This document shows positions 286 through 30,222 of a stretch of 35,746 nucleotides of DNA, one piece after another. The first letter of the stretch is position 1; every line of letters starts with the position of its first letter. This DNA is from an uncultured Pseudomonadales bacterium. Lineage in GTDB: Bacteria > Patescibacteriota > Microgenomatia > UBA1400 > PJMF01. Made by a program: the position numbers and the translations under genes. The notes under the pieces were generated by a model that saw nothing but the letters and a program-made list of their open reading frames with translations, was not told the origin of the DNA and searched no databases. Where the stretch lies: positions 1-35,746 of the forward strand of contig CAZZDG010000003.1 of assembly GCA_964652415.1 (NCBI GenBank), read 5' to 3'.

Positions 286-1920
286 GTGAAAACAATAACA
301 TCACTGTTTAAAAAAATAACTATATTTGACAGAGTATTAGATACACAAACTCCTCTTTTTCTATTACTTGTTTTAGTAGTATTTCTCCGAATCCCTAATT
401 TATTCGAACCATATTGGTATGGTGACGAAGGCATTTACTTAACCATTGGTCAAAGTTTAAACAAAGGTGCAAAACTTTATACAGAAATAATCGATCATAA
501 AACCCCACTCATTTATTACTTGGCTAGAGTACAAACTCAAATGAACTTTAGGTTACTAAATATTGCTTGGATGCTTGTCACAACAACAGCTTTTTATTAC
601 TTCGCAAAAAAACTACTAAAATCTGTTAAACTTACTACATTGGCGGGGTTGATTTTTGTATTACTCACAACTTTGCCTTGGCTAGAAGGCAATATTCCCA
701 ATGGCGAACTTTTTGTTTTAGGATTTGTGTTGGTCGGTTTTTTAATTCTTTCTAGCACCACATACTTCAAAGGTTTTCTCAACCAAAAGCCACAATCAAA
801 AAAAAACCTGTTCCCACTTTTTTTATGTGGTTTTTTTGTAGGACTTGGAATTCTTACAAAAGTACCTTCAATTCTTGATTTAGGTGTCGCATTTAGTATT
901 GCTTACTTTAGTTGGATAAACCTTTTCACCTTCAATGATTGGAAACATAATTTTAAACAACTTTTTATACTTATTCCTCAGGTTATAAGCATACTCGTAG
1001 GTGCACTCACACCAATTCTCGTTTCTATTCTTTATTTTATAAGCATTGGTTCTGGAAAAGACTACCTAGACTTTGGACTACTCTATAATTTTAGATATGC
1101 GGGGAGTTGGGGCTTACCATTTACTCATCCATTTTTAGTTCAAAGTTTTACACTTCCAGGAAAAGCTTTCTATCTAATTGCGCTTTTGTTACTCATTACC
1201 TTACTAAGAAAATACCTCAAACCCGCATTACAATTTATTTTGTTTTGGTTTGCGGCTGATCTCTTTGCATCTCTACTTTCAAATAGACCATACCCTCACT
1301 ACTTCGTGCAACTAGTTCCTCCATTGGCTCTACTCATTGCCATTGGATGGCAGTATTTTATTGATTTATCTGGAGTTGAAAAATTACAATCACTACGCTT
1401 AAATTTACCGGAAACTTTGAAAAAAGTTATTCCACTTTCACTTTCTGCACTTGTCATTTTTCTCTTTGTTGCCGTTATGACCTTATTAGAGTTTAGGCCC
1501 TACCAAACTTTTTCATACTATAAAAATTGGTTTGCACTTGCTACCGGAAAAATCAGTAAAGAGGAGTATCGACAAACTTTCGACTCACTCATGCGAGATA
1601 ACTACAAAGCAGCACCAATAATTAAAGCAACAGGTTCTCCCGATCTTTTTATTTGGGGAACAAACCCAGTACTTTATGCACTAACAGAAACTCAACCAAC
1701 AGGAAGATTTACAGTTTCATTCCATATAAAAGATTTTGATGCATATGGTGAAACAATTCGTGATGTTGTAAAAAAACAACCAACATTTATAGTAGTAATG
1801 AAAAATGAAGATTATATTTTTGCTGAATTAAATAGTTACTTAGTTAACAACTATGTTCCAGATAACAGTAAATTTAATAATTTTGTGCTCTGGAAAAGAA
1901 TGAATGCAAACAATAATTAG
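286..1920 (+). CDS. GT-C fold, polyprenyl-phosphate-sugar dependent glycosyltransferase (ArnT/PMT_2-like)
   Basis: 544-aa ORF with a GTG start 21 nt after the previous stop. It is polytopic, with many hydrophobic segments. The first-loop motif EPYWYGDEGIYLTIGQSL carries acidic residues typical of GT-C enzymes. The C-terminal ~120 aa are soluble. Confidence 0.7.
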   Translation: MKTITSLFKKITIFDRVLDTQTPLFLLLVLVVFLRIPNLFEPYWYGDEGIYLTIGQSLNKGAKLYTEIIDHKTPLIYYLARVQTQMNFRLLNIAWMLVTTTAFYYFAKKLLKSVKLTTLAGLIFVLLTTLPWLEGNIPNGELFVLGFVLVGFLILSSTTYFKGFLNQKPQSKKNLFPLFLCGFFVGLGILTKVPSILDLGVAFSIAYFSWINLFTFNDWKHNFKQLFILIPQVISILVGALTPILVSILYFISIGSGKDYLDFGLLYNFRYAGSWGLPFTHPFLVQSFTLPGKAFYLIALLLLITLLRKYLKPALQFILFWFAADLFASLLSNRPYPHYFVQLVPPLALLIAIGWQYFIDLSGVEKLQSLRLNLPETLKKVIPLSLSALVIFLFVAVMTLLEFRPYQTFSYYKNWFALATGKISKEEYRQTFDSLMRDNYKAAPIIKATGSPDLFIWGTNPVLYALTETQPTGRFTVSFHIKDFDAYGETIRDVVKKQPTFIVVMKNEDYIFAELNSYLVNNYVPDNSKFNNFVLWKRMNANNN

Positions 1921-4343: not shown

Positions 4344-5675
4344 GTGAAAAATTCAGTTTTTGTAAAATACTATCCTCAATTTTTGTTACTCATTCTAGCC
4401 TTTACCTTTTTGACAAGAATGTATCGACTTCATATTCCCGAAGTGTATGTTTTCGATGAGGTCTATCATGCAGTCACTGCCAAACTCATGGTAGATGGTG
4501 ATACCAGAGCCTATGAGTGGAATAATCCTCCTCCAGAACCAAACACTGCAGTTGACTGGCTACATCCTCCATATGCAAAACTAACACAGGCAGCAAGTAT
4601 GGCAATTTTTGGGAAGAATTCATTTGGCTGGCGATTTAGCTCAGTCATTTTTGGGTGTTTGGTTGTGTTGGTAACAGCAAAAATTGCTGAAGCATTATTT
4701 AAAAATAAACAACTTGCATTACTTTCCGCATTTTTAATTTCTCTAGATGGTTTACTCTTTACAATGTCACGAATTGCTATGAATGATGTTCACGTTACTT
4801 TTTTTATTTTACTCAGCATGTGGCAGTACATTTTGTATGTAAACTCAAAGCGAAAAATAAAAAAATACTTGTTTTTGAGTAGTATCGCAGCAGGGTTTGC
4901 AATTGGAACAAAGTGGTCTGGTGTTTTTGCCATTGGATTTATCGGAATCGTCGAAACTATATATACAGTAAAAACTTTCTTTGGAAAAAGTAGCCTTACT
5001 TTTTTGATTCATCAAATTGGAATATTGCTTGTAACGTGTTTACTCATACCAGCACTTCTATACTTAGGCTCATATTCACAAATGTTCTTAATGGGAAAAG
5101 ACTTTAATCACTTAGTAGAAATGCATAAGAATACATGGTGGTATCAAACTAACTTAACTGCAACCCATCCTGCTCAATCAAAACCAATTCAATGGTTCCT
5201 GAATACAAAACCAGTTTGGATTTCTGTTGATTATGCTTCAAGGGGGTTACGTGGCGATATCTATGCAATTGGAAATCCAGTATTATTTTGGCTGGGTGAT
5301 ATTGCACTTTTTGCCAGCTTAACAGTCTTAATCTTAAACAAACTCAAAAAAAAGAAACATCAACTCTCAAAAGATGCAACCACACTCGGATTGCTTTTGT
5401 TTGCTTATTCAATTGTTTGGATGCCTTGGCAGTTATCACCAAGAATTATGTTCTTTTATCACTATTTGCCTGCTGTTCCATTGCTGAGCATTACCCTTGC
5501 TTACTGGTTGATAAAAATTTGGAATACTCAAAAATTCAAGCTCTTGTCATTCTTGGCAATCGCACTTATTTTTGCATGCTTTGTAGTTTTGTACCCGCAT
5601 TTAACACTAATAAAATTGCCTATTGAAGTTAAAGAAAATTTCTATTTTTTCTTTGATTTTTGGAGACAAAAATAG
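4344..5675 (+). CDS. PMT-family (GT39) phospholipid-carrier-dependent glycosyltransferase
   Basis: 443-aa polytopic ORF with a GTG start. It carries the VFDEVYHAVTA motif (the DE motif of protein O-mannosyltransferase-like GT-C enzymes), then the loop AVDWLHPPYAKL and a C-terminal 4-TM region. Confidence 0.8.
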   Translation: MKNSVFVKYYPQFLLLILAFTFLTRMYRLHIPEVYVFDEVYHAVTAKLMVDGDTRAYEWNNPPPEPNTAVDWLHPPYAKLTQAASMAIFGKNSFGWRFSSVIFGCLVVLVTAKIAEALFKNKQLALLSAFLISLDGLLFTMSRIAMNDVHVTFFILLSMWQYILYVNSKRKIKKYLFLSSIAAGFAIGTKWSGVFAIGFIGIVETIYTVKTFFGKSSLTFLIHQIGILLVTCLLIPALLYLGSYSQMFLMGKDFNHLVEMHKNTWWYQTNLTATHPAQSKPIQWFLNTKPVWISVDYASRGLRGDIYAIGNPVLFWLGDIALFASLTVLILNKLKKKKHQLSKDATTLGLLLFAYSIVWMPWQLSPRIMFFYHYLPAVPLLSITLAYWLIKIWNTQKFKLLSFLAIALIFACFVVLYPHLTLIKLPIEVKENFYFFFDFWRQK

Positions 5676-5893: not shown

Positions 5894-6718
5894 ATGAAAA
5901 ATCAAATTGAAACAACACCGATAATATCAATGCATGACATAGAAAATTTTCTTATGTATGTGGTAACTATTGTAAATAGTTATTCACCATCTATACCAAC
6001 TAGTAACGATATTGAAAGTAAAATCAGGGAAAAATTAGAAAATGAAGGTACTATTTTAGATTTTCCAACTGGAAACCATAGATGGATCAAACATGATAAT
6101 CCTGCTTCACCACATCATTATGCAGGAAGCTCTGTTTTATGGGCTGATACTCGCAAAGATAAAAAATCAGATACCTCAATGTCACCATGGGAAGGTGATT
6201 TATCTATAAGTAGAGTTATTAAAGATAAAAATTTTTGTGATGATACAGATACCTATATCGAGACGTCACAACAAACTGATAATAGACTTAGATTCTATCA
6301 TTTTGTTGGGTTTCCAAAAGAAGAAGAAAAATCCATTGTCATCGCTAAAAATATGGCAGATGTGGTTGCGCAATATGGTGCAAAAAGTCAACAAAGATTG
6401 CATATGCATGCGGCCCGAGGCATATATCCTAATGACCCGCTAACTACTACAGAAAGACCACATGAAATATCTTCAGAAAATGTTCTCATTCAACGCATAT
6501 TTGACCTAGGTGTTAAACATTCTTTAGAAAGATTCTCCAAAGAACTCAGTGGATTTGGGACTAGAAGGCAATACATTCAAAGAATTGGTAGTAATGGAGT
6601 TCCTATACAAAGAACCGTGTTTGAGTTTGATACATGGCACGCTGCTCTTGCAGCTACATATGAACTCAAACACTCTATATCACAGCATTGGTTAAAACAT
6701 GCATATACAATTTGCTGA
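5894..6718 (+). CDS. hypothetical soluble protein; no family recognised
   Basis: 274-aa ORF with no TM segment or signal peptide. A GGAG lies 13 nt upstream of the ATG. I can name no motif. It is flanked by 218 nt and 220 nt of unassigned sequence. Confidence 0.55.
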   Translation: MKNQIETTPIISMHDIENFLMYVVTIVNSYSPSIPTSNDIESKIREKLENEGTILDFPTGNHRWIKHDNPASPHHYAGSSVLWADTRKDKKSDTSMSPWEGDLSISRVIKDKNFCDDTDTYIETSQQTDNRLRFYHFVGFPKEEEKSIVIAKNMADVVAQYGAKSQQRLHMHAARGIYPNDPLTTTERPHEISSENVLIQRIFDLGVKHSLERFSKELSGFGTRRQYIQRIGSNGVPIQRTVFEFDTWHAALAATYELKHSISQHWLKHAYTIC

Positions 6719-6938
6719 TCGAATGTACTCTATGCAAAAAGTATTATCCTGCATACCAGTTTTTGCTATAGTCAAACCTTCTATAATGGACCAAAAATAT
6801 ATGAATTGCTCAACAAAATGGATTGTCATACCATTTTCATTGGAAATGCCATCTACTTTGCTTGGAGGAGTAATTTTAAATCGTATAAATGAAAAAAAAT
6901 AATTAGACAATAATGTACAAATTGGAGTTTATCTTTTT

Positions 6939-7646
6939 TTAACTCCAGTAGTCTGGGTATTGCTTCATAAAGTTTTCTCTAGCTGATCCCTTAAGTTTTG
7001 GAATAAACGGCCTAAAATTTACCAATCTGTCTTGGTCTTTCCTGAAGGCTGATAATAATTTGGAAACATAGTGTTGTAAATCTTCAACCATGGATACATT
7101 TTCAATATAAAAATATTTTTTATTAACTCTGCTAGTATCATCTGTGGCAGCCCCAGAGCTTGAAGCGCTAGAACGTGCTGTAAAAGTACCAAGTTTTAGA
7201 AAAGCTTGAATAAATCCTTTATCATAGGAACCAGTATCAACAATCATTTCTAAAGGTAAAGATAAACTGTGCTTATTAAATGGCGTTGTATAAACAATTT
7301 TTTTTAACCTTTTGGTAGTTACAAAAGCAACACTTTTTTTCCATAACGCGCTAACCCACCACCACCCAATTGACATCTCAAGCGCTGCAATCGCTGTAAC
7401 CAATAAATTTACACTTCCTGCTGGAAAACTAGGAATTAAGTTTACAAGGAATCCTGTAATTGTGTACCCAATAACAACCAAAATCAAAGCAATAGCAATC
7501 ACAAACATACGTCTAAAGTGCAACATAATTTTATGTTCACGGGTTACGTATAAAATTTGCTCATCAGTAGCTTGCCCAGGGAATTTATATAAATAGGGGA
7601 ACTCAAAATCTTCTACTTTAAAAATATCAGCTGTTTGTTCACTCAT
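6939..7646 (-). CDS. membrane protein with a TM hairpin followed by a bPH (bacterial PH, YdbS/YdbT-like) type domain
   Basis: 235 aa. Two hydrophobic segments (FVIAIALILVVIGYTITGFLV, LLVTAIAALEMSIGWWWVSAL) are followed by SVAFVTTKRLKKIVY, the pattern of bPH_2 proteins. It is the last gene of the minus-strand operon, 13 nt after the helicase stop. Confidence 0.55.
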   Translation of the reverse strand: MSEQTADIFKVEDFEFPYLYKFPGQATDEQILYVTREHKIMLHFRRMFVIAIALILVVIGYTITGFLVNLIPSFPAGSVNLLVTAIAALEMSIGWWWVSALWKKSVAFVTTKRLKKIVYTTPFNKHSLSLPLEMIVDTGSYDKGFIQAFLKLGTFTARSSASSSGAATDDTSRVNKKYFYIENVSMVEDLQHYVSKLLSAFRKDQDRLVNFRPFIPKLKGSARENFMKQYPDYWS

Positions 7647-7659
7647 TTTGTTGTCCTTT

Positions 7660-10600
7660 TTAAACTTTCTCTATTATATCCGAATTTTCCAAAAACTTAA
7701 GCTCCCTAATTTCACGCATGACTTCCAAGATCAACTGCTTGAGGTCTAACACTGCTTTGTCAGAAATCGTAAATCTACGCGTTGTGTGTTTATCTTTATG
7801 AACTCCATCAGGTTCAACAAAATCAAACTCAACTTGCTCAACAGAATAGTGAAAAGTTGGGTCTAACTCTGCTAGTAATTTATAAAATACCATTTGCCGT
7901 TGTAATCTACCTCGAATCGTCTGTGGCAACTCTAGTTCTCGCTCTGAATAACCACTTGTATTTGCTCCACCAATAATAACATTTTCTGATTTTGGGCCAC
8001 CAGTTTTGTAATCAATGACTCGTACTGTCTTTGCTGCATCATTAAGTAAATCTACCCTATCAATTCTACCAGATAGCTGAATTTCTTGTTCCCCATCAAA
8101 CAAAACAGTTTTGTTAAGCCTACCGCCAAAAAACTTTTCAACAAACAAAGGTGCCTTCTGTCGGTCAACATCACTCAAACTACTCAACACTGCGTCATAG
8201 TAGAAATCAAACACCTTTTTACCATGAGCTAATCTATCTATAAAATCATTTCCAGATAAAAATTCTTTTTGTAATGCATACTCAAAAAATTGCAATACAC
8301 TTTCTTTTGGTAAATTAGTTCCACTCTTTTTCAATTCACCGTAGAATTGTTCAAGTGCATAATGAACTGCTGTACCAAATGAAAGTACGGGGGTTTTTGC
8401 CCTTGGTACCCGAAGTAGTGAATTAATCATAAACTCATGAGGATCTTCAAGGTAGTTGTTTAAAGCTGTCACAGATAACTGAAATTCAGACACCAGCTGT
8501 GTAAAAAATTCTCGCATCTGTTGTGTATATATTGCTTCGGAAACAGTTGAGCTTGTCAATAACTTCTCTAATAATTTTTCAGAATTCTCCAACAATTTCT
8601 TATTCTCTGAATCGGCCAACGGTATTGCTTTTTCACCTAATTCTGAAATAAACATTGAACCAAGTAAATCTTTCCCATCAGCTCGCATTTTTGAAAAAGT
8701 TAGGTACGCCTTCTTGCTGGCTCGAGTTAACGCCACATAAAAGAGTCTGCGATCATCTTCATTCTTTTCTTTTTTCTCAACATCAACAGTTCTTAAAATA
8801 CTTTCTGGCAATGGCAGTAACTCGCGCGACCTTCCATTACCCCATTTTTTATCTACACACCCAATTACAAAAACGTACTGCCATTCTTTTCCTTTTGCGC
8901 TGTGTGCAGTAGAAAGAGCAACTCTGTTTTTAGTTAACTTAAAATCTTCAATCGGGATTTTAATATTGTGCTCGCGCATGACAGTGAGTCTTTGCAGAAA
9001 TTGATCTAATCCAAACTGTCGATCAGCATTCACAAACTGTTTGACGACGCTATACAAAGAGTTGAGTGCAAACAAATGGTTTGTTTTTACAGTTTCCGTA
9101 AGAATAAAGTCACTAAAACCAAAACCATCCGGTTTTTTTTCTTCACCATCTTGTGTTACATCTGCATTATTTTTTGAAATGAGTAAACTAAACCATTCAT
9201 GAAACAACATATTTTTGCTCAGGTTATACCAAGAAATTAACTTTTGTTTAAAAGTTACAGCTTGTTGAAACTCAACTTGAGTCAAACCATAATTTTCTGC
9301 TATATCAATAAAATCGAATTCTAAAACCTCACCAATTGTTTTGTGTATCTTTCCAGCAATTCGAGCTAGCTTATACACCATAACTCTGTCCAAGCCAACC
9401 CAACTATACTGCATAACTTCAAATAATTTAAGCGTGTCTGAACCCAATGCAACTTCTTGCATTGCTTGTAAAAAATGAAGCAATTGGATAATAAGCAAGT
9501 CTTCTAAAACAGAACCACCGATTGAAAGTTCAAAAGGTATCTCCCACTTTGTGAAAATTTCTTGTAATGCTTGTGCCTCTTTGTTGTTCCGATACAAAAC
9601 TGCAATTTCTTCTAATAACACACCATTCTTTTGTAACTTTTTTATTTCTTCAGCCACAAAAAGTAATTCAACTGTTTCACTTTCAGCCTGGTATGTTGTA
9701 ATAAAACTGTCAACTCCTTTTGCAGAAACCAGTTTTTGCGTCAGTGCTTTTGATAACTGACCACCACCAGAAAAATCTAAACTATTATGAGAAATCAATT
9801 CGTGTGCAGCATCATATAACTCTTGATAACATCTGTACCCAGTTTTGAGTGTAATAATTTGAGTTTCTGAGTACCGTGAAACAAACTCAAGCATATTTTC
9901 TGTAGACGCCCCTTGAAATCTAAAAACAGATTGGTGTGGATCACCAACAACAAAAATATTAGGATTTTCGTCCCAAAATGAACCCAATAATTCTACAATT
10001 TTATTTTGGCTTGCATTAGTATCCTGATATTCATCAACTAAAATATATTGAAATCGCTCCTGATAATCTAGGAGCAACTCTTCATCAGATTCAAATGCCT
10101 GAACCACAAAAATAATCATGTCATCAAAGTCATAACGCTTACGCTTTTGCAACTCTGCTGAGTATTTTGTGAACACTGTGTGTAGTTCTTTTTGTTTCGC
10201 TAGATTTTTTGCTTTTTGTAATAGTGAGGCAGAAAGTTTCGTCTTGGATTTTTTGCCACTGTTTGCTTTTGCATTTTGATCTTCCCAGTACTCAATTGTT
10301 TCTTGTTCTAATTCCAATTTTTCTGATTCTAAAATCTCTGCAAATTTTTCTGGATTTACATATTCTCTTTTTAACTCTGAAATTCTTTTAATCACTTCTT
10401 CTAAATAATGTAACGGACTGCCCAGAGGTTTCAGATCTTTTAAGTTCGAGTTTAATAGTAAATACTCAAAAATTTCAAATCGCTCAAAATTTGAAAGTGG
10501 TTCGCTCCCTTTTTTTATAGGAAATTTTTCTGGATAATTAATAATAACTTCACTAGCAAAGCCATGAAACGTCATAATGTTGACATAATAGCCTTGTGTG

Positions 10601-10848
10601 CCAATCAAAGAGACAATCCGCTGTCGCATATTTTGCGCAGCAGCATCGGTAAAAGTAAGGGCGAGAATATTTTGCGGATTTTGGTCAGTTTCTAAAAGAA
10701 TTTTTGCAACACGTGTCGCAAGCACTTGGGTCTTACCAGTCCCAGGACCTGCCATAACCATGACTGGACCATCAATTGTATCAACAGCCTTTTTTTGTTC
10801 AGGGTTGAGTTTGTTATAGGCGGTAGTGAAGTTTTGGTTTTCCTGCAT
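7660..10848 (-). CDS. UvrD/PcrA-type SF1 DNA helicase fused to a C-terminal RecB-family PD-(D/E)XK nuclease (AddA-like single chain)
   Basis: 1062 aa. Helicase motifs: AGPGTGKTQV (Walker A), LVDEYQDTN (motif II), VVGDPHQSVFRFQGA (motif III), TAHSAKGKEW and FYVALTRA (motifs V/VI). C-terminal nuclease motifs: GRIDRVD ... VIDYKTG ... QMVFYKLL. Confidence 0.9.
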   Translation of the reverse strand: MQENQNFTTAYNKLNPEQKKAVDTIDGPVMVMAGPGTGKTQVLATRVAKILLETDQNPQNILALTFTDAAAQNMRQRIVSLIGTQGYYVNIMTFHGFASEVIINYPEKFPIKKGSEPLSNFERFEIFEYLLLNSNLKDLKPLGSPLHYLEEVIKRISELKREYVNPEKFAEILESEKLELEQETIEYWEDQNAKANSGKKSKTKLSASLLQKAKNLAKQKELHTVFTKYSAELQKRKRYDFDDMIIFVVQAFESDEELLLDYQERFQYILVDEYQDTNASQNKIVELLGSFWDENPNIFVVGDPHQSVFRFQGASTENMLEFVSRYSETQIITLKTGYRCYQELYDAAHELISHNSLDFSGGGQLSKALTQKLVSAKGVDSFITTYQAESETVELLFVAEEIKKLQKNGVLLEEIAVLYRNNKEAQALQEIFTKWEIPFELSIGGSVLEDLLIIQLLHFLQAMQEVALGSDTLKLFEVMQYSWVGLDRVMVYKLARIAGKIHKTIGEVLEFDFIDIAENYGLTQVEFQQAVTFKQKLISWYNLSKNMLFHEWFSLLISKNNADVTQDGEEKKPDGFGFSDFILTETVKTNHLFALNSLYSVVKQFVNADRQFGLDQFLQRLTVMREHNIKIPIEDFKLTKNRVALSTAHSAKGKEWQYVFVIGCVDKKWGNGRSRELLPLPESILRTVDVEKKEKNEDDRRLFYVALTRASKKAYLTFSKMRADGKDLLGSMFISELGEKAIPLADSENKKLLENSEKLLEKLLTSSTVSEAIYTQQMREFFTQLVSEFQLSVTALNNYLEDPHEFMINSLLRVPRAKTPVLSFGTAVHYALEQFYGELKKSGTNLPKESVLQFFEYALQKEFLSGNDFIDRLAHGKKVFDFYYDAVLSSLSDVDRQKAPLFVEKFFGGRLNKTVLFDGEQEIQLSGRIDRVDLLNDAAKTVRVIDYKTGGPKSENVIIGGANTSGYSERELELPQTIRGRLQRQMVFYKLLAELDPTFHYSVEQVEFDFVEPDGVHKDKHTTRRFTISDKAVLDLKQLILEVMREIRELKFLENSDIIEKV

Positions 10849-10857
10849 TACTGAGTC

Positions 10858-11397
10858 TTATGATATTTTAAGTTTTCGCGCTACAATTTGAATGACACTA
10901 CTTGCTACCGGATCAACAATTTCTCCAGTATCTATCATTTGTAAAGCTTCTAAAATTGGAATAAAGCGCTTTTCTTCCACAAATTCATTAGTATCTGAAA
11001 CGTCTTCGTTCGGCAACTTTACGAAGTTAACTTTAGCAAAAAAAATGGTTTCTTTTTCTGAGGAACCACTACTTAATGGATAAAATTCTATTAATTTCTC
11101 AATTGAAACAACTTCAACTCCAGTTTCTTCTCTGAGCTCACGAACTGCTGACTCTTCTGGATCCGTCCCGTCGATTGCTCCTCCTGGAATACCCCATTCC
11201 ATTTTACCTATTGGATATCTATATTGTTTAATAAGTAAAATCTCTTTACTAGCATTTACCACTGCAACTCCCGCACCGTCACTTCGACGCATATACCCGT
11301 AAATACCTTCTTGACCATTTGGAAATTCTATATCATCTTCAAAGACTTCCATCCATTTGTTTTTATAGACACTCTGGGAACTAAGTTTTTTAAACAT
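10858..11397 (-). CDS. Nudix hydrolase (ADP-ribose pyrophosphatase-like)
   Basis: 179 aa. Nudix box GGAIDGTDPEESAVRELREETGV (REUxEExGU is perfect). The N-terminal YKNKWMEVFEDDIEFPNG is typical of ADPR-pyrophosphatase-type Nudix proteins. Confidence 0.88.
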   Translation of the reverse strand: MFKKLSSQSVYKNKWMEVFEDDIEFPNGQEGIYGYMRRSDGAGVAVVNASKEILLIKQYRYPIGKMEWGIPGGAIDGTDPEESAVRELREETGVEVVSIEKLIEFYPLSSGSSEKETIFFAKVNFVKLPNEDVSDTNEFVEEKRFIPILEALQMIDTGEIVDPVASSVIQIVARKLKIS

Positions 11398-11402
11398 ATG
11401 CT

Positions 11403-12593
11403 TTATTCTAATTCATCTAACCCATCATCCAACTCCAACTGCGCAATTCCCGGCAAACTTCCCCCGATAATTCCTTGCAAATCACCGTACATATTGGAAG
11501 TACTCATAATAACTTTCTCAATTTCTTTCTCGCGTTTACTCCAAATTCTGCTAAACGATCTTTTCTCTGTTTCCAAATCTTCTTTCATACTCACAAACGC
11601 CATCACAATATTTTCTACCCGGTTTTTAAACTGAGCTCCAGATAAATATTTATACAGCATATCCATTTTTTCATCTCGCCCTACCAAAGATTGCTTTACT
11701 TTAGCAACTTCTACCAACTGAATTCGCAAAGCATTCACCAAAGGGATAATATGTGGGTAAGAAACCACCCAGACACCATTTTTTAAACCAAAACCCTTAA
11801 TATCATCAGGAAGTACTTGCGTAACCAAAATTGCAATATCCGCTTTGACTAAACCCTGATCACTCTTGAGTTTAGAAATCCACCCATCACTAAATGCCTT
11901 AGTATTTTTTGATTCCCAAATTATTGTTCCGGAATGTGTCCCAATTTTTGCATTCACTTTTTGCACTAAATCCGCACCTTTTGCTCCAGTTGCCACATCA
12001 CTAATTTCATCAGTTACAAAAGTATGTGCCAACAACTCTCGCAAGTCGTTTTCTTGAACCTCACCTTGAATCTGCATAGAACCTTGCTCAGCTTTTCGCT
12101 TCAAATCACCAATTTGAGCGCGCATCTGTTCAAGCTGCTTATCCTTTTCTTGCAATTTCAAGCGTTGCGCTTCAGCCTCTTCTTTTTTAGTATCTGCAAC
12201 TATTTTGCTTCGCTCTTCATCAAGTTTTCGAGCCATTTCTAGCTCAATTCTCTTTTCTTTTTCTTCTAATTCACGTGATTTTTTCCTCAATTCAAGTTCG
12301 TGCTTTTCAGACTCTTCTAACTTTTTTGAATTTTCTCTTAACTGTTCCTGTAACTCAGCAAGTTCTTTTTCTTTTTGTTTCTGTAGTTCGCCAGTTTCTT
12401 TTTCAACCTTCTCTTGAGCATGTTTTTGAGCGACAAGCCACAATTTCTTTTTTTCTGCTTCAAGTTGAGTTCCATATTCTTTTTTTTGTTGTTCAAGTTT
12501 GTCTTTGAGTTTGTGCTCAACTTCTTGCGAGAGTGCTTGTGTTAGAGGAATTTGTTCTCCACAGTTTGGACAAGTAATAGTTTGATCTGGCAT
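11403..12593 (-). CDS. DUF2130-type protein: N-terminal zinc ribbon, long coiled coil, C-terminal PD-(D/E)XK-like domain
   Basis: 396 aa. It has CPNCGEQI at residues 8-15 and about 150 aa of K/E/Q-rich heptad-like sequence. This is followed by GEVQENDLRELL ... KGADLVQKV ... TIIWESKNTK (an E / D / ExK arrangement). The DUF2130 assignment is from recall. Confidence 0.7.
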   Translation of the reverse strand: MPDQTITCPNCGEQIPLTQALSQEVEHKLKDKLEQQKKEYGTQLEAEKKKLWLVAQKHAQEKVEKETGELQKQKEKELAELQEQLRENSKKLEESEKHELELRKKSRELEEKEKRIELEMARKLDEERSKIVADTKKEEAEAQRLKLQEKDKQLEQMRAQIGDLKRKAEQGSMQIQGEVQENDLRELLAHTFVTDEISDVATGAKGADLVQKVNAKIGTHSGTIIWESKNTKAFSDGWISKLKSDQGLVKADIAILVTQVLPDDIKGFGLKNGVWVVSYPHIIPLVNALRIQLVEVAKVKQSLVGRDEKMDMLYKYLSGAQFKNRVENIVMAFVSMKEDLETEKRSFSRIWSKREKEIEKVIMSTSNMYGDLQGIIGGSLPGIAQLELDDGLDELE

Positions 12594-12602
12594 AATTATT
12601 CT

Positions 12603-12824
12603 TTATTTTTTGTCTTTCAACTTTCTAATTTGAACATCAAGCTGTCGTCCCTTTTGTTGATATATTTTGTTGAGTGGCTCTGGACTAGCAAACTCCTTCT
12701 TGAGGAGATTTTTTCGATCGACTGCGGCTTTCAGAAGCGCTTGGTTCATTCCTAACGCTCTTTTTTGCCCAAAAGAAGTTGGCTTTACAACTCTACTGAT
12801 CCCCAATGGTTTAAAAAATTTCAT
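12603..12824 (-). CDS. small, strongly basic hypothetical protein (73 aa)
   Basis: Its ATG overlaps the stop of the upstream peptidase gene by 4 nt (12821-12824), and its stop lies 9 nt before the DUF2130 start. It is lysine/arginine-rich. No family is recognised; coding is supported mainly by operon packing. Confidence 0.5.
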   Translation of the reverse strand: MKFFKPLGISRVVKPTSFGQKRALGMNQALLKAAVDRKNLLKKEFASPEPLNKIYQQKGRQLDVQIRKLKDKK

Positions 12825-13465
12825 TCCTCTTTCTTTGCCTCTAAAATAAGAACATCATTATCTGTCAGTGCCACAAAAATAATTGCATGATTGAGATAGT
12901 AGTCTACAACTGAGTTTATTTTCTGAGATTCTGGATGATCTGATCGAAAATGAGGAGCAACGCTAAAATCAATCAACCCTAGACCTTGGGTTATTCTCTG
13001 TTTTTGATATTTTTCGGGATTTATCTCAGGATCATCAACAAGCTCTAACCCATCCAAGCTTGGACTTAAGACACACATGCCTGCACTAAATCCAGCATAA
13101 ACAAAGTCGTCCCTCAAAGCTAATTCATTCAAAATTATGTCAAAACCACTTTCTTGAAATGCACGCCTTAAGACAAAGACATTTCCACCACGAACATACA
13201 CAGCATTGAATTGCTCTATTTTTTGCCTGAGCTCCTGTTGTTTGCCAAAATATTCGCGTAAATCAACCTGCTCAACTTCTAAACCTAAGCCTTCGATATC
13301 TCTTTTATCTCTTTGCACTGATTTTGTCAGCTCAAAGTAGTTATTAGTAAAATCAAGAGCATTAGTAATCAAAGCAACTTTTTTGTTTTTTGTAACAGAA
13401 ATCAATAAATTCTTAAATTTTTCTGGATATTCTCCTAATCGGTATGATGCGAGGTAAAGCTTCAT
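12821..13465 (-). CDS. S51 family peptidase (peptidase E / dipeptidase E-like)
   Basis: 214 aa. Motifs: VYVRGGNVFVLRR (the GGNTF-like motif), YAGFSAGMCV (GxSAG nucleophile elbow) and VAPHF (His). It is the first gene of the minus-strand operon. Confidence 0.72.
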   Translation of the reverse strand: MKLYLASYRLGEYPEKFKNLLISVTKNKKVALITNALDFTNNYFELTKSVQRDKRDIEGLGLEVEQVDLREYFGKQQELRQKIEQFNAVYVRGGNVFVLRRAFQESGFDIILNELALRDDFVYAGFSAGMCVLSPSLDGLELVDDPEINPEKYQKQRITQGLGLIDFSVAPHFRSDHPESQKINSVVDYYLNHAIIFVALTDNDVLILEAKKEE

Positions 13466-13668
13466 AGCAACAGCATAACAAAACAGGTAAAAAACTCAAC
13501 TGCAATAGTGCTACAGTTTATGTAAGAAAAGGATAGTAGTATTTACTCAGAAAAACAAAACTGCATATGGTTATTTTGAAAAAAGTTTGCTTTACTTACT
13601 TGTAATCAAAAAACCCAAAGAAAGTTTTGTAACAAAGTATCAGTATATATAACAAAAGCAAGGAACAT

Positions 13669-14733
13669 ATGACAAAAAAAGCTCAAACACAAAATCCTGT
13701 AGAAAACACTAGCGAACAATCAGCTAAACAACAAGCTGTTGCAATTGCAATGCAACAAATTGAAAAAGAATTTGGCAAAGGTTCTGTCATGAAAATGGGT
13801 GATTCAATGCGTAATATGGCAACAGTTCCTGTCGTTTCAACCGGATCTTTAGCCTTAAATCTCGCACTTGGCATCGGAGGATTTCCAAAGGGTAGAATTC
13901 TCGAAATCTATGGACCAGAAGCATCTGGTAAAACAACTCTTTGTTTACACGCCATTGCAAATGTACAAAAAGCTGGTGGAGTTGCCGCATTTATTGACGT
14001 TGAACATGCACTTGATCCACAGAGAGCAGAAAAGATTGGCGTCAATCTCGATGAATTATTAATTTCTCAACCAGACTATGGTGAACAAGCACTTGAAATT
14101 GCTGAAAAGCTGATACGTTCTGGTGGTGTTGAAATTGTCATCATCGACTCTGTTGCAGCATTGGTTCCAAAATCAGAAATTGAGGGTGAAATGGGCGATC
14201 ACCAGATGGGAACTCAAGCTAGACTTATGTCTCAAGCAATGAGAAAACTCACTGGAGCAATTAGTAAAACTAAAACCTTAGTTATTTTCACTAACCAAAT
14301 CCGTCACAAAATTGGCGTCATGTTCGGTTCTCCAGAAACAACCACTGGGGGCAATGCACTTAAGTTCTATGCCTCTATGAGATTAGACATTAGAAAAATT
14401 GGCAACATTCAAGAAGGTGATGCAATTGTTGGCAGTCGCCACAGAGTAAAAGTTAAAAAGAATAAACTAGCTCCTCCATTTCAAGAGGCAGAGTTTGACA
14501 TGGATGCAAACGGAATTTCTATGACTGGAGATGTCGTTGACATCGGTGTTAAAGAAAATGTCATTCAAAAAGCTGGTAGTTTCTTTAAGTATAATGGTGA
14601 AGTTATCGCTCAGGGTCGTGAAGCTACTAAGGCATACTTAGAAGAAAACCCAAATATAATGAAAAAGATGCAAAAAGAAATTTGGGATTCAATTAAAAAA
14701 GAAAACAAAATTGACGAACCAAAAGAAGAATAA
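13669..14733 (+). CDS. recA: recombinase RecA
   Basis: 354 aa. Motifs: [10 protein letters not shown] (Walker A), IIDSVAAL (Walker B), [14 protein letters not shown] and the [30 protein letters not shown]2 region. AAGGA lies 7 nt upstream of the ATG. Confidence 0.98.
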
Positions 14734-30184: not shown

Positions 30185-30222
30185 TTTTTTTCCTCCTTCA
30201 CACGCTACACTTAATGTAAGAC

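Follow-up and report, generated by a model that had tools for sequence, protein, structure and literature searches.

The largest protein encoded at this locus, a helicase-nuclease of 1062 aa, resembles AddA, RecB and AdnB in having an N-terminal SF1A UvrD-like motor, a C-terminal RecB-family PD-(D/E)XK nuclease with the motifs GxxD...DYK...QxxxY, a similar length and genomic proximity to recA. It likewise resembles PcrA, UvrD and Rep, which are its closest matches in sequence over residues ~10-750 (1pjr, 6e-62; TIGR01073, 325 bits) but lack its extra RecB nuclease domain of ~300 aa, and it shares a UvrD-family similarity with GajB of Gabija (PADLOC GajB model, 2.4e-80; GajB in the PDB, ~5e-11). 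Among the proteins encoded beside it, the DUF2130 protein (PF09903, COG4487) is analogous to RmuC in combining a long coiled coil with a nuclease core, as has been proposed for RmuC (PMC3424549), but has no match to Pfam RmuC (PF02646). A 235-aa membrane protein resembles the bPH_2/YdbT-like proteins in that two TM helices precede a helix-capped PH-like beta-sandwich, and differs from them by extra conserved N- and C-terminal segments. The window analysed here (35,746 nucleotides in full) belongs to a Patescibacterial, Woesebacteria-like genome of ~0.9 Mb, the assembly of which is 94% complete.

The helicase-nuclease

Pfam matches to UvrD-helicase (1.5e-65), UvrD_C (9.7e-33) and PDDEXK_1 (7.9e-20) bear out the first-pass annotation of the 1062-aa protein as a UvrD helicase with a RecB-type nuclease, and we can conclude that it unites an SF1A helicase of the UvrD/PcrA-like type and a RecB-family PD-(D/E)XK nuclease in a single chain. 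Walker A and DExQ are kept in 42/42 orthologues, and the nuclease motifs (G927/D930, D946-Y-K948 and Q985...Y989) in 41-42 of the same 42. An orthologue is furthermore present in 60 of 61 relatives, up to the level of the order, and the sole genome without one is only 65% complete. The cluster is thus anchored by a gene that belongs to the core of the order.

Unlike AddA and RecB, however, the protein has a helicase core nearer to that of PcrA/UvrD, the nearest PDB match being PcrA with AdnB, AddA and RecB far weaker, and it falls below all NCBIfam equivalog cut-offs, as seen for addA (TIGR02785, score 112 against a cut-off of 708), recB (TIGR00609, 123 against 696) and TIGR02784 (107 against 861). 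Fe-S cluster cysteines, another feature of the AddAB, RecBCD and AdnAB comparison, are missing as well, since the protein holds only 2 Cys. The first-pass annotation had raised the questions of whether another PcrA/UvrD and an AddB are encoded elsewhere in the genome. The former is, as there are two UvrD-family genes, namely the helicase-nuclease and, on C2, a PcrA-like gene of 657 aa; a paralogue of ~650 aa is likewise found in nearly all relatives. The helicase-nuclease can accordingly not be regarded as the sole PcrA/UvrD orthologue, its own TIGR01073 score of 325 being also below the cut-off of 911. An AddB was by contrast not found, and neither was a RecC, RecD or AdnA partner, in the 94% complete assembly. 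With two UvrD-family genes and one other PDDEXK_1 gene, a 314-aa ORF, the genome has no second RecB-like gene either, and the helicase-nuclease is its only RecB/AddA-type enzyme. RecO and RecJ are present. By its domain architecture and by analogy to AddA and RecB, we infer that the enzyme would unwind and resect DNA ends or gaps to yield single-stranded DNA for RecA, and that it would do so with no AddB, RecC or AdnA as a partner.

The notion that the cluster is an anti-phage defence island, either Gabija-like by way of a GajB-type helicase or of a Nudix-containing kind, stems from the observations that the 1062-aa protein matches the PADLOC models of GajB and of the DRT helicase, and that the Nudix protein matches the candidate system PDC-S07 (7.7e-6). 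The GajB matches are however of the generic UvrD-family kind, and no GajA OLD-family ATPase/TOPRIM nuclease was detected among the six proteins by PADLOC or among the neighbours by Pfam, nor is a partner of any other system present. Furthermore, the helicase-nuclease differs from Gabija in carrying its own RecB nuclease domain, and as a core gene in conserved housekeeping synteny it behaves unlike defence genes. GC content stays level at ~0.35 throughout the region, which gives no hint of an island, and the matches of the DUF2130 protein to LmuB and ZorA span the coiled coil only. PADLOC found no defence system in the six proteins. A defence island is extremely improbable, and the surveillance or defence module entertained in the first-pass annotation has no support.

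Packing of the six genes and their neighbourhood in relatives

Upon renewed ORF calling, all six minus-strand genes were recovered at the positions first assigned to them (Table 1), with the same junctions, i.e. first the 4-nt overlap and then gaps of 9, 5, 9 and 13 nt, and with recA starting 203 nt from the S51 start on the opposite strand. A Logan contig from an independent assembly spans positions 6600-13700 with 0 differences, and the cluster sequence occurs in DNA metagenome runs only.

Table 1. Positions of the six clustered genes and of neighbouring features in the window
Feature	Position	Strand	Length	Remark
S51 peptidase ORF	12821-13465	minus	214 aa	
Small basic protein ORF	12603-12824	minus	73 aa	
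DUF2130 ORF	11403-12593	minus	396 aa	
Nudix ORF	10858-11397	minus	179 aa	
Helicase-nuclease ORF	7660-10848	minus	1062 aa	
2-TM PH-like membrane protein ORF	6939-7646	minus	235 aa	
recA	13669..14733	plus		TIGR02012 9e-152; divergent neighbour
PMT-type (GT39) glycosyltransferase	4344..5675	plus		Pfam PMT and PMT_4TMC
Promoter-like motif CTACA-N5-TGTAAG(AA)	13511..13526	plus		points to recA, inside the 203-nt spacer

The six genes are probably co-transcribed, and the S51/small-gene overlap, which is found in three genomes, suggests translational coupling of these two. Co-transcription does not imply a common function, however. The reading that all six genes constitute one repair or nucleic-acid surveillance system, with the peptidase, the Nudix protein and the bPH protein as signalling or effector parts, draws on their contiguity on one strand with gaps of at most 13 nt and on the S51 stop overlapping the small-gene start. 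Such tight spacing is nevertheless common in this genome, where 42% of same-strand ORF pairs have gaps of at most 15 nt and three runs of at least six genes are spaced in this way, so that the packing is unusual but not exceptional. Moreover, as judged by crude ORF calling with BLAST and HMM thresholds on relatives sampled within one order, all six genes are contiguous in this genome only; the five genes other than the helicase-nuclease are distributed independently and patchily, and the helicase-nuclease itself has different neighbours in relatives. The closest relatives have unrelated genes for a glycosyltransferase, a peptidase, a GNAT protein or a histidine ammonia-lyase between cluster members. 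In one of them (G004) a histidine ammonia-lyase gene overlaps the helicase-nuclease stop with its start and is followed by GNAT, M20 peptidase and GT87-like genes before the bPH gene is reached, while three unrelated genes lie between DUF2130 and the small gene. In the closest relative (G007) two genes, both absent from the genome studied here, separate bPH and helicase-nuclease, and the number of other genes at this position ranges from 2 to 6 across G007, G004 and G006. The six genes consequently do not travel together, contrary to the system implied by the first-pass annotation, and we regard a six-component system as highly improbable.

The DUF2130 protein and the accessory genes

The DUF2130 protein matches PF09903 over the full length of the profile (1.4e-64; 218 bits against a gathering score of 26.7), a family that has been listed within the PD-(D/E)XK superfamily (PMC3424549). 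Its layout comprises an N-terminal CPxCG knuckle, a helix of ~170 residues, a PD-(D/E)XK core and a C-terminal helical hairpin. The coiled coil and the D...ExK signature noted earlier are thus recovered as a long helix (residues 18-191) and the triad D208...E227-x-K229, but what had been described as a zinc ribbon is a single knuckle, with just one CxxC (C8, C11) and no second pair to make up four Cys. In 38 sequences drawn from many phyla, C8, P9, C11, D208, E227 and K229 do not vary. The AF2 model (pLDDT 80.6, above 90 in the core) gives Foldseek matches to MspJI, the SPARDA nuclease, the DdmD nuclease and PaqCI. DUF2130 occurs in 26 of the 61 relatives; outside the genus, 16 of 17 genomes show no linkage between it and the helicase-nuclease. 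Among 80 sampled loci from many phyla it has no conserved neighbour outside Patescibacteria, and the 4 loci in which it lies beside the helicase-nuclease are all Patescibacterial by their other genes, whatever their labels.

The S51 call is substantiated by PF03575 (1.6e-21; score 77 against a gathering score of 23.9), the protein being PepE-like with the PepE equivalog below cut-off. Orthologues at the same site are limited to G000, G004, G006 and G007; the gene is absent from five of the nine genomes of the genus and unlinked elsewhere. The Nudix protein likewise contains the RELREETG motif ascribed to it, scores above gathering for PF00293 (1.2e-15; 58 against 21.1) and is ADP-sugar pyrophosphatase-like (NudE/YffH-like), with the NudE and YffH subfamily matches below cut-off. 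Its orthologues lie beside the helicase-nuclease in G000, G004 and G007 only and are unlinked in G022, G034 and G010. A Nudix gene adjoins the small gene in the G009-type locus, however, and a loose Nudix association is for this reason possible. The description of the 235-aa protein as a 2-TM bPH protein stands as to the TM hairpin and the PH-like fold, but not as to the family, since no Pfam bPH match (bPH_2, PF03703) was obtained even at E<=10. Its AF2 model (pLDDT 85) has TM helices at 39-70 and 76-104, a beta-sandwich and a C-terminal helix, and the top Foldseek hits, 3dcx, 3hsa and 3b77, are all bacterial PH domains (probability ~1, target TM score ~0.5). The family appears to be Patescibacteria-specific, and orthologues are widespread within the bacterial family, mostly elsewhere in the genome and rarely linked to the helicase-nuclease.

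The cluster is very likely a lineage-specific mosaic, brought together by chance around a core housekeeping helicase-nuclease. The ancestral layout in the family would have been recA reading away from a divergent series of the small basic protein, in some cases DUF2130, and the helicase-nuclease, with PMT converging on the latter, and recA together with small-(DUF2130)-helicase-nuclease is the likely ancestral unit. Two insertions would have followed, shared by this genome with a few close relatives: an S51 gene on the upstream side of the small gene, and a Nudix gene separating DUF2130 from the helicase-nuclease. In this genome alone, bPH and helicase-nuclease would have become neighbours through the loss of two membrane glycosyltransferase-like genes. 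The short junctions are an outcome of genome compaction. The S51, Nudix and bPH genes are incidental to the helicase-nuclease unit, although it may be held against the mosaic that a recently assembled operon could still have gained a joint function.

The small basic protein and the neighbourhood of recA

The 73-aa protein is basic (pI 10.8), matches nothing in Pfam, NCBIfam, PADLOC, PHROGs or the PDB, and by sequence belongs to a narrow Patescibacterial family. Homologues are found in 21 of the 61 relatives (13 genera), and a search of 1.84 billion proteins gave 84 representative clusters, nearly all of them stand-alone proteins of 48-133 aa. In part of the family such an orphan basic protein of 57-109 aa precedes the helicase-nuclease, which sets the locus apart from AddAB, RecBCD and AdnAB. 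The small gene lies directly 5' of the helicase-nuclease in G009, G031, G027, G021, L177, L181 and L182 and directly 5' of DUF2130 in the genus itself, G017, L094 and L095. Within the family it is often divergent from recA, and many genera have a recA->RNase Y pair at a distance of 0.2-4.5 kb from either the small gene or the helicase-nuclease.

The recombination unit beside recA envisaged in the first-pass annotation is thus upheld in part, since several genera of the family have the small protein and the helicase-nuclease, in some genera with DUF2130 as well, side by side in the interval from recA to PMT, but S51, Nudix and bPH fall outside it. It is conceivable, if somewhat doubtful, that these three form a true recombination and repair machine, divergent from and co-regulated with recA. 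The small basic protein would then serve as a loader or as one of the subunits, and the coiled-coil nuclease, as a dimer, would tether or process ends. In agreement with this notion, the order small gene, DUF2130, helicase-nuclease is kept in the genus, G017, L094 and L095, the DUF2130-helicase-nuclease pair reappears in the more distant L168, and loci with and without DUF2130 between the small gene and the helicase-nuclease interleave in the helicase-nuclease tree. Furthermore, the small gene remains directly 5' even where the gene upstream of it changes, its homologues precede a RecQ helicase instead in one clade, and recA is the divergent neighbour at many loci. However, DUF2130 is absent or unlinked in most genomes that have the helicase-nuclease and stands alone outside Patescibacteria, and where the two are separated (G002, G008 and G001) the small gene is found beside DUF2130 and not beside the helicase-nuclease. 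The functionally unrelated PMT is an even more conserved neighbour, convergent with the helicase-nuclease in most family loci and some order-level loci. Synteny here thus persists without a functional link, and at such phylogenetic depth it is weak evidence. Co-regulation likewise finds poor agreement with the recA spacer, since its only conserved motif resembles a general recA-directed promoter and not a shared operator. CTACA-N5-TGTAAG(AA), which members of the family conserve ahead of recA, has 9 exact copies in the genome against ~0.6 expected from a base-composition estimate. Eight of the nine copies are intergenic, the others are followed after 2-47 nt by the start of an ORF that reads the same way, and no copy is found on the minus strand within the cluster.

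Within the mosaic that we favour, the small protein offers a new lead, if a modest one. Its family could, with due reservation, be undescribed, Patescibacteria-specific and dedicated to recombination helicases and nucleases as their partner or regulator, the physical or regulatory role being one that we infer. If this were true, the small protein may replace the missing AddB/RecC-type accessory function, or it may alternatively govern a minimal response to DNA damage in such reduced genomes.

Gene order and its conservation

The six genes lie on the strand opposite to recA, the start of which is 203 nt away, and are closely joined: in the direction of reading, the first two overlap by 4 nt, and the remaining junctions are gaps of 9, 5, 9 and 13 nt. 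ORFs, junctions and the distance to recA are exactly as the first-pass annotation had them, and its main domain calls (S51, DUF2130, Nudix, and UvrD with a RecB-type nuclease) were borne out by Pfam. Since a Logan contig independently assembled from a public run covers positions 6600-13700 with 0 differences, the junctions are no assembly artefact, and a misassembly at the bPH/helicase junction is likewise ruled out by this contig crossing it. The call of a two-TM bPH protein holds at the level of the fold but not in Pfam: the 235-aa protein has no Pfam bPH match even at E<=10, whereas its AF2 model (pLDDT 85) shows a PH-like sandwich after two TM helices, with its best PDB matches among bacterial PH-domain proteins.

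Coordinates of the genes and sequence elements discussed (G000, source genome, with contigs C; other G numbers, relatives; L numbers, public or relative contig loci)
Feature	Location	Strand	Basis or remark
S51 peptidase	12821-13465	minus	ORF, Pfam Peptidase_S51
Small basic protein	12603-12824	minus	ORF, 73 aa
DUF2130	11403-12593	minus	Pfam DUF2130, 1.4e-64
DUF2130 knuckle	12546-12581		residues 5-16
Nudix	10858-11397	minus	Pfam NUDIX
Helicase-nuclease	7660-10848	minus	1062 aa; Pfam UvrD-helicase, UvrD_C, PDDEXK_1
bPH-type protein	6939-7646	minus	235 aa; AF2 fold
Motif CTACA-N5-TGTAAG(AAT), window	13511-13526, 30205-30220		
Motif copies, G000	C1:12645-12660; C2:27528-27543; C30:396-411; C43:5286-5301, 508-523		
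AAAACCCAAA element	~13600-13625		recA leader; same position in L033-L038, L095, L175, L183, L190
Stand-alone PDDEXK_1 ORF, G000	C34:1053-1712		314 aa; Cas4/RecB-like
ORF directly downstream of DUF2130	L033:12222-12449; L034:13124-13342; L073:10705-10947		conserved, 72-80 aa; G004, G006, G007
Histidine ammonia-lyase / helicase-nuclease, G004	L033:6759-8390 / 8390-11575		
Small gene with RecQ	L185:3920-5810; L188:1012-2803; L186:3976-6365		G016; G032; G020

The sequence originates from a freshwater-sediment metagenome, and all public runs found to contain it are of metagenomic DNA; the source genome, of which the window is contig C3, amounts to 887 kb at 94% completeness. Close homologues carry the public labels Candidatus Woesebacteria or Patescibacteria. 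Four loci with recA/small/DUF2130/helicase-nuclease/PMT synteny (L093, L095, L097 and L130; PMT is a GT39-type glycosyltransferase gene) are among public MAG records titled 'Pseudomonadales bacterium', labels that are probably wrong, since the genes of these records are 44-86% identical to those of the Patescibacteria window.

Tight coupling of the six genes is in itself unremarkable, because close packing is common throughout the source genome, where 42% of same-strand ORF pairs have no more than 15 nt between them and three runs of >=6 such genes occur. How closely genes without a functional relation can be coupled is well illustrated by the congeneric genome G004, in which the last base of the helicase-nuclease stop codon is also the first base of the histidine ammonia-lyase gene. 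Sigma-70 promoter and terminator scans within the cluster were uninformative, with promoter-like counts at chance level and terminator-like matches inside genes. Dense same-strand packing is no evidence of a functional module in the ultra-compact genomes of Patescibacteria/CPR, which is a useful caution.

The first-pass annotation had further proposed that the six genes form one system, either a repair supra-operon paired with recA or a nucleic-acid surveillance module. While the observation itself stands, the six-component system is left without support by the very comparison that the annotation had suggested, since the distributions of the genes differ and their neighbourhood is plastic even inside the genus. 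Among 61 genomes, namely the source and 60 relatives (8 of the same genus, 28 from the family's other genera and 24 from the order's other 18 families), a full-length orthologue of the helicase-nuclease is present in 60, the lone exception being 65% complete. DUF2130 is found in 26/61, the whole genus included; 17 of its carriers lie outside the genus, and in just one of these does it adjoin the helicase-nuclease. For S51, orthologues at this position are limited to four genomes, all within the genus, and for Nudix to three; the Nudix protein of the G009 type is an ambiguous case, sharing ~36% identity with that of the window, similar to other paralogues, and clearer orthologues in other genera are unlinked. 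The bPH protein is common in the family, mostly elsewhere in the genome. In the closest relative, G007 (helicase-nuclease 77% identical), bPH and helicase-nuclease are kept apart by two membrane glycosyltransferase-like genes, and in G004 by six genes, among them those for an M20 peptidase, a GNAT and a histidine ammonia-lyase; three unrelated genes separate DUF2130 from the small gene in G004 and G006, ~8 kb lies between DUF2130 and helicase-nuclease in G002, and G005 has just small-DUF2130-helicase-bPH. The two genes that part bPH from helicase-nuclease in relatives are absent from the source genome, and the 13-nt junction is therefore the product of a recent deletion. A conserved ~75-aa ORF 3' of DUF2130 in G004, G006 and G007 is likewise absent from the source genome and is unrelated to a 78-aa ORF of G008.

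What is conserved, in the family and at some order-level loci, is a backbone consisting of an envelope-gene block that ends in UbiA and PMT and is convergent with the helicase-nuclease, beyond which a variable stretch leads to recA and RNase Y. We consider it likely that the cluster is a mosaic peculiar to this lineage, with a core single-chain helicase-nuclease at its centre. S51 peptidase, ADP-sugar-type Nudix and membrane PH-like protein are best regarded as housekeeping genes with no connection to it, which would have come alongside through insertions and one deletion.

The helicase-nuclease and DUF2130

All SF1 motifs of the helicase-nuclease are conserved in 41-42 of 42 orthologues, as is the RecB-nuclease signature (G927xxD930, D946-Y-K948, Q985xxxY989), and since there are only two cysteines, an Fe-S cluster of the AddB/Cas4 type is lacking. 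The nearest motor is PcrA/UvrD (PDB 1pjr, 6e-62), AdnB, AddA and RecB being much weaker PDB matches, and the protein scores under every NCBIfam equivalog cut-off. A separate ~650-aa PcrA-like paralogue is also found in each genome. The 94% complete source genome yielded neither a second RecB/AddA-like gene nor an AddB-like one, the partner sought at the suggestion of the first-pass annotation; it does encode RecO and RecJ and has one other PDDEXK_1 gene, a stand-alone 314-aa ORF. From this architecture and the lack of alternative genes we infer that the protein is a partner-less single chain providing an end-processing function of the AddAB/RecBCD type, of which it could be the minimal, single-chain counterpart. 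Near-universal in occurrence, it appears to be the sole end-processing helicase-nuclease of this Patescibacteria order.

The notion of a defence island might draw on PADLOC, in which several of the proteins have matches. Those of the helicase-nuclease are however to generic UvrD-family models only (GajB, DRT helicase), with no GajA accompanying GajB, those of DUF2130 to LmuB and ZorA are coiled-coil matches, and the Nudix protein has one weak match to a candidate system. Other evidence against a defence island is the core status of the helicase-nuclease, its housekeeping synteny and a GC profile that stays flat.

In DUF2130 the coiled-coil helix (~170 residues) and the D...ExK triad proposed earlier are confirmed, the triad D208...E227-x-K229 being invariant, but instead of a four-Cys zinc ribbon the N-terminus has one conserved CPxCG knuckle. 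The alpha/beta core is modelled with high confidence, and a fold search places it nearest to PD-(D/E)XK nucleases (MspJI, the SPARDA and DdmD nuclease domains, PaqCI), whereas a sequence search against the PDB gave coiled-coil noise only (YmcA/RicA). The family is listed, with function unknown, in a census of the PD-(D/E)XK superfamily (PMC3424549). The invariant single knuckle at the tip of the long helix resembles the Rad50 zinc hook, and one may speculate that it could mediate zinc-dependent dimerisation.

The recA spacer

Throughout the family, a near-palindromic motif, CTACA-N5-TGTAAG(AA) (CTACA-N5-TGTAAGAAT), has been conserved 5' of recA. The 887-kb genome holds nine exact copies against about 0.6 expected, as estimated from base composition; 8/9 are intergenic, and apart from the recA copy, which lies 142 nt 5' of recA, the intergenic copies are found 2-47 nt 5' of an ORF start in the same orientation. 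Since the copies are mostly intergenic, close to ORF starts and of like orientation, the motif looks like a general promoter element directed at recA, and it is a candidate for a Patescibacterial promoter element or the site of a global regulator. An operator shared between recA and the cluster was rejected, the motif being general and recA-oriented with no minus-strand copy within the cluster, and no evidence for or against co-regulation of the cluster with recA was found. In many genera a conserved AAAACCCAAA element is present 30-85 nt 5' of the recA start codon, which may be a leader or translation signal.

The small basic protein

Searches of Pfam, NCBIfam, PADLOC, PHROGs and the PDB gave no match to the 73-aa protein (pI 10.8), but the gene is real and conserved. 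A profile built from nine homologues finds it in 21/61 genomes and 13 genera of the family, and an exhaustive profile search of 1.84 billion proteins returned 84 representative clusters, nearly all stand-alone and of 48-133 aa. Domain fusions were uninformative as a functional clue, as the two long matches are multi-stretch coiled-coil. Conservation resides in the C-terminal ~50 residues, with the pattern ERxxLxxAExAxxDPL...RGxxLxxRIxxL.

The position of the gene is strikingly regular. It is found immediately 5' of DUF2130 throughout the genus (adjacent in 7/9 genomes) and also in G017, L094 and L095, in which DUF2130 is in turn followed by the helicase-nuclease; it immediately precedes the helicase-nuclease in G009, G031, G027, G021, L177, L181 and L182 (gaps of -17 to 65 nt) and lies 1.3 kb upstream of it in G022. 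In one clade homologues are found not by the helicase-nuclease but directly 5' of a RecQ-family helicase (DEAD, Helicase_C and RecQ_Zn_bind, with or without HRDC) in two genomes and with one gene between in a third. The upstream neighbour varies (S51, Nudix, divergent recA, unrelated genes). The independent lineages are fewer than the loci, since five of eight public-contig look-ups re-sampled lineages already seen (G008, G001, G009 and G031 types). In L183/G031 a 392-aa protein is encoded between the small gene and recA; its reading as a divergent DUF2130 was dismissed (hhalign probability 0.1%).

In a quick tree of the helicase-nuclease, small-helicase and small-DUF2130-helicase states are interleaved within the family clade, which fits an ancestral small-DUF2130-helicase order from which DUF2130 was repeatedly lost or displaced. 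It is conceivable, though we hold it somewhat doubtful, that this family-level kernel of small protein, sometimes DUF2130, and helicase-nuclease beside recA is functionally meaningful. Against it stands that PMT, an unrelated gene, keeps its place in the neighbourhood even more persistently, so that at this depth synteny says little about function, that the small gene remains with DUF2130 where DUF2130 and helicase-nuclease split, and that outside Patescibacteria DUF2130 has no conserved neighbour and does not adjoin the helicase-nuclease in 76/80 loci across phyla. The interest that remains lies in the partner-less helicase-nuclease and in an orphan small basic protein consistently preceding DNA helicase or nuclease genes, a modest but testable lead; should the small protein act as cofactor or regulator, it would open a way into the organisation of recombinational repair in these reduced, uncultivated bacteria.
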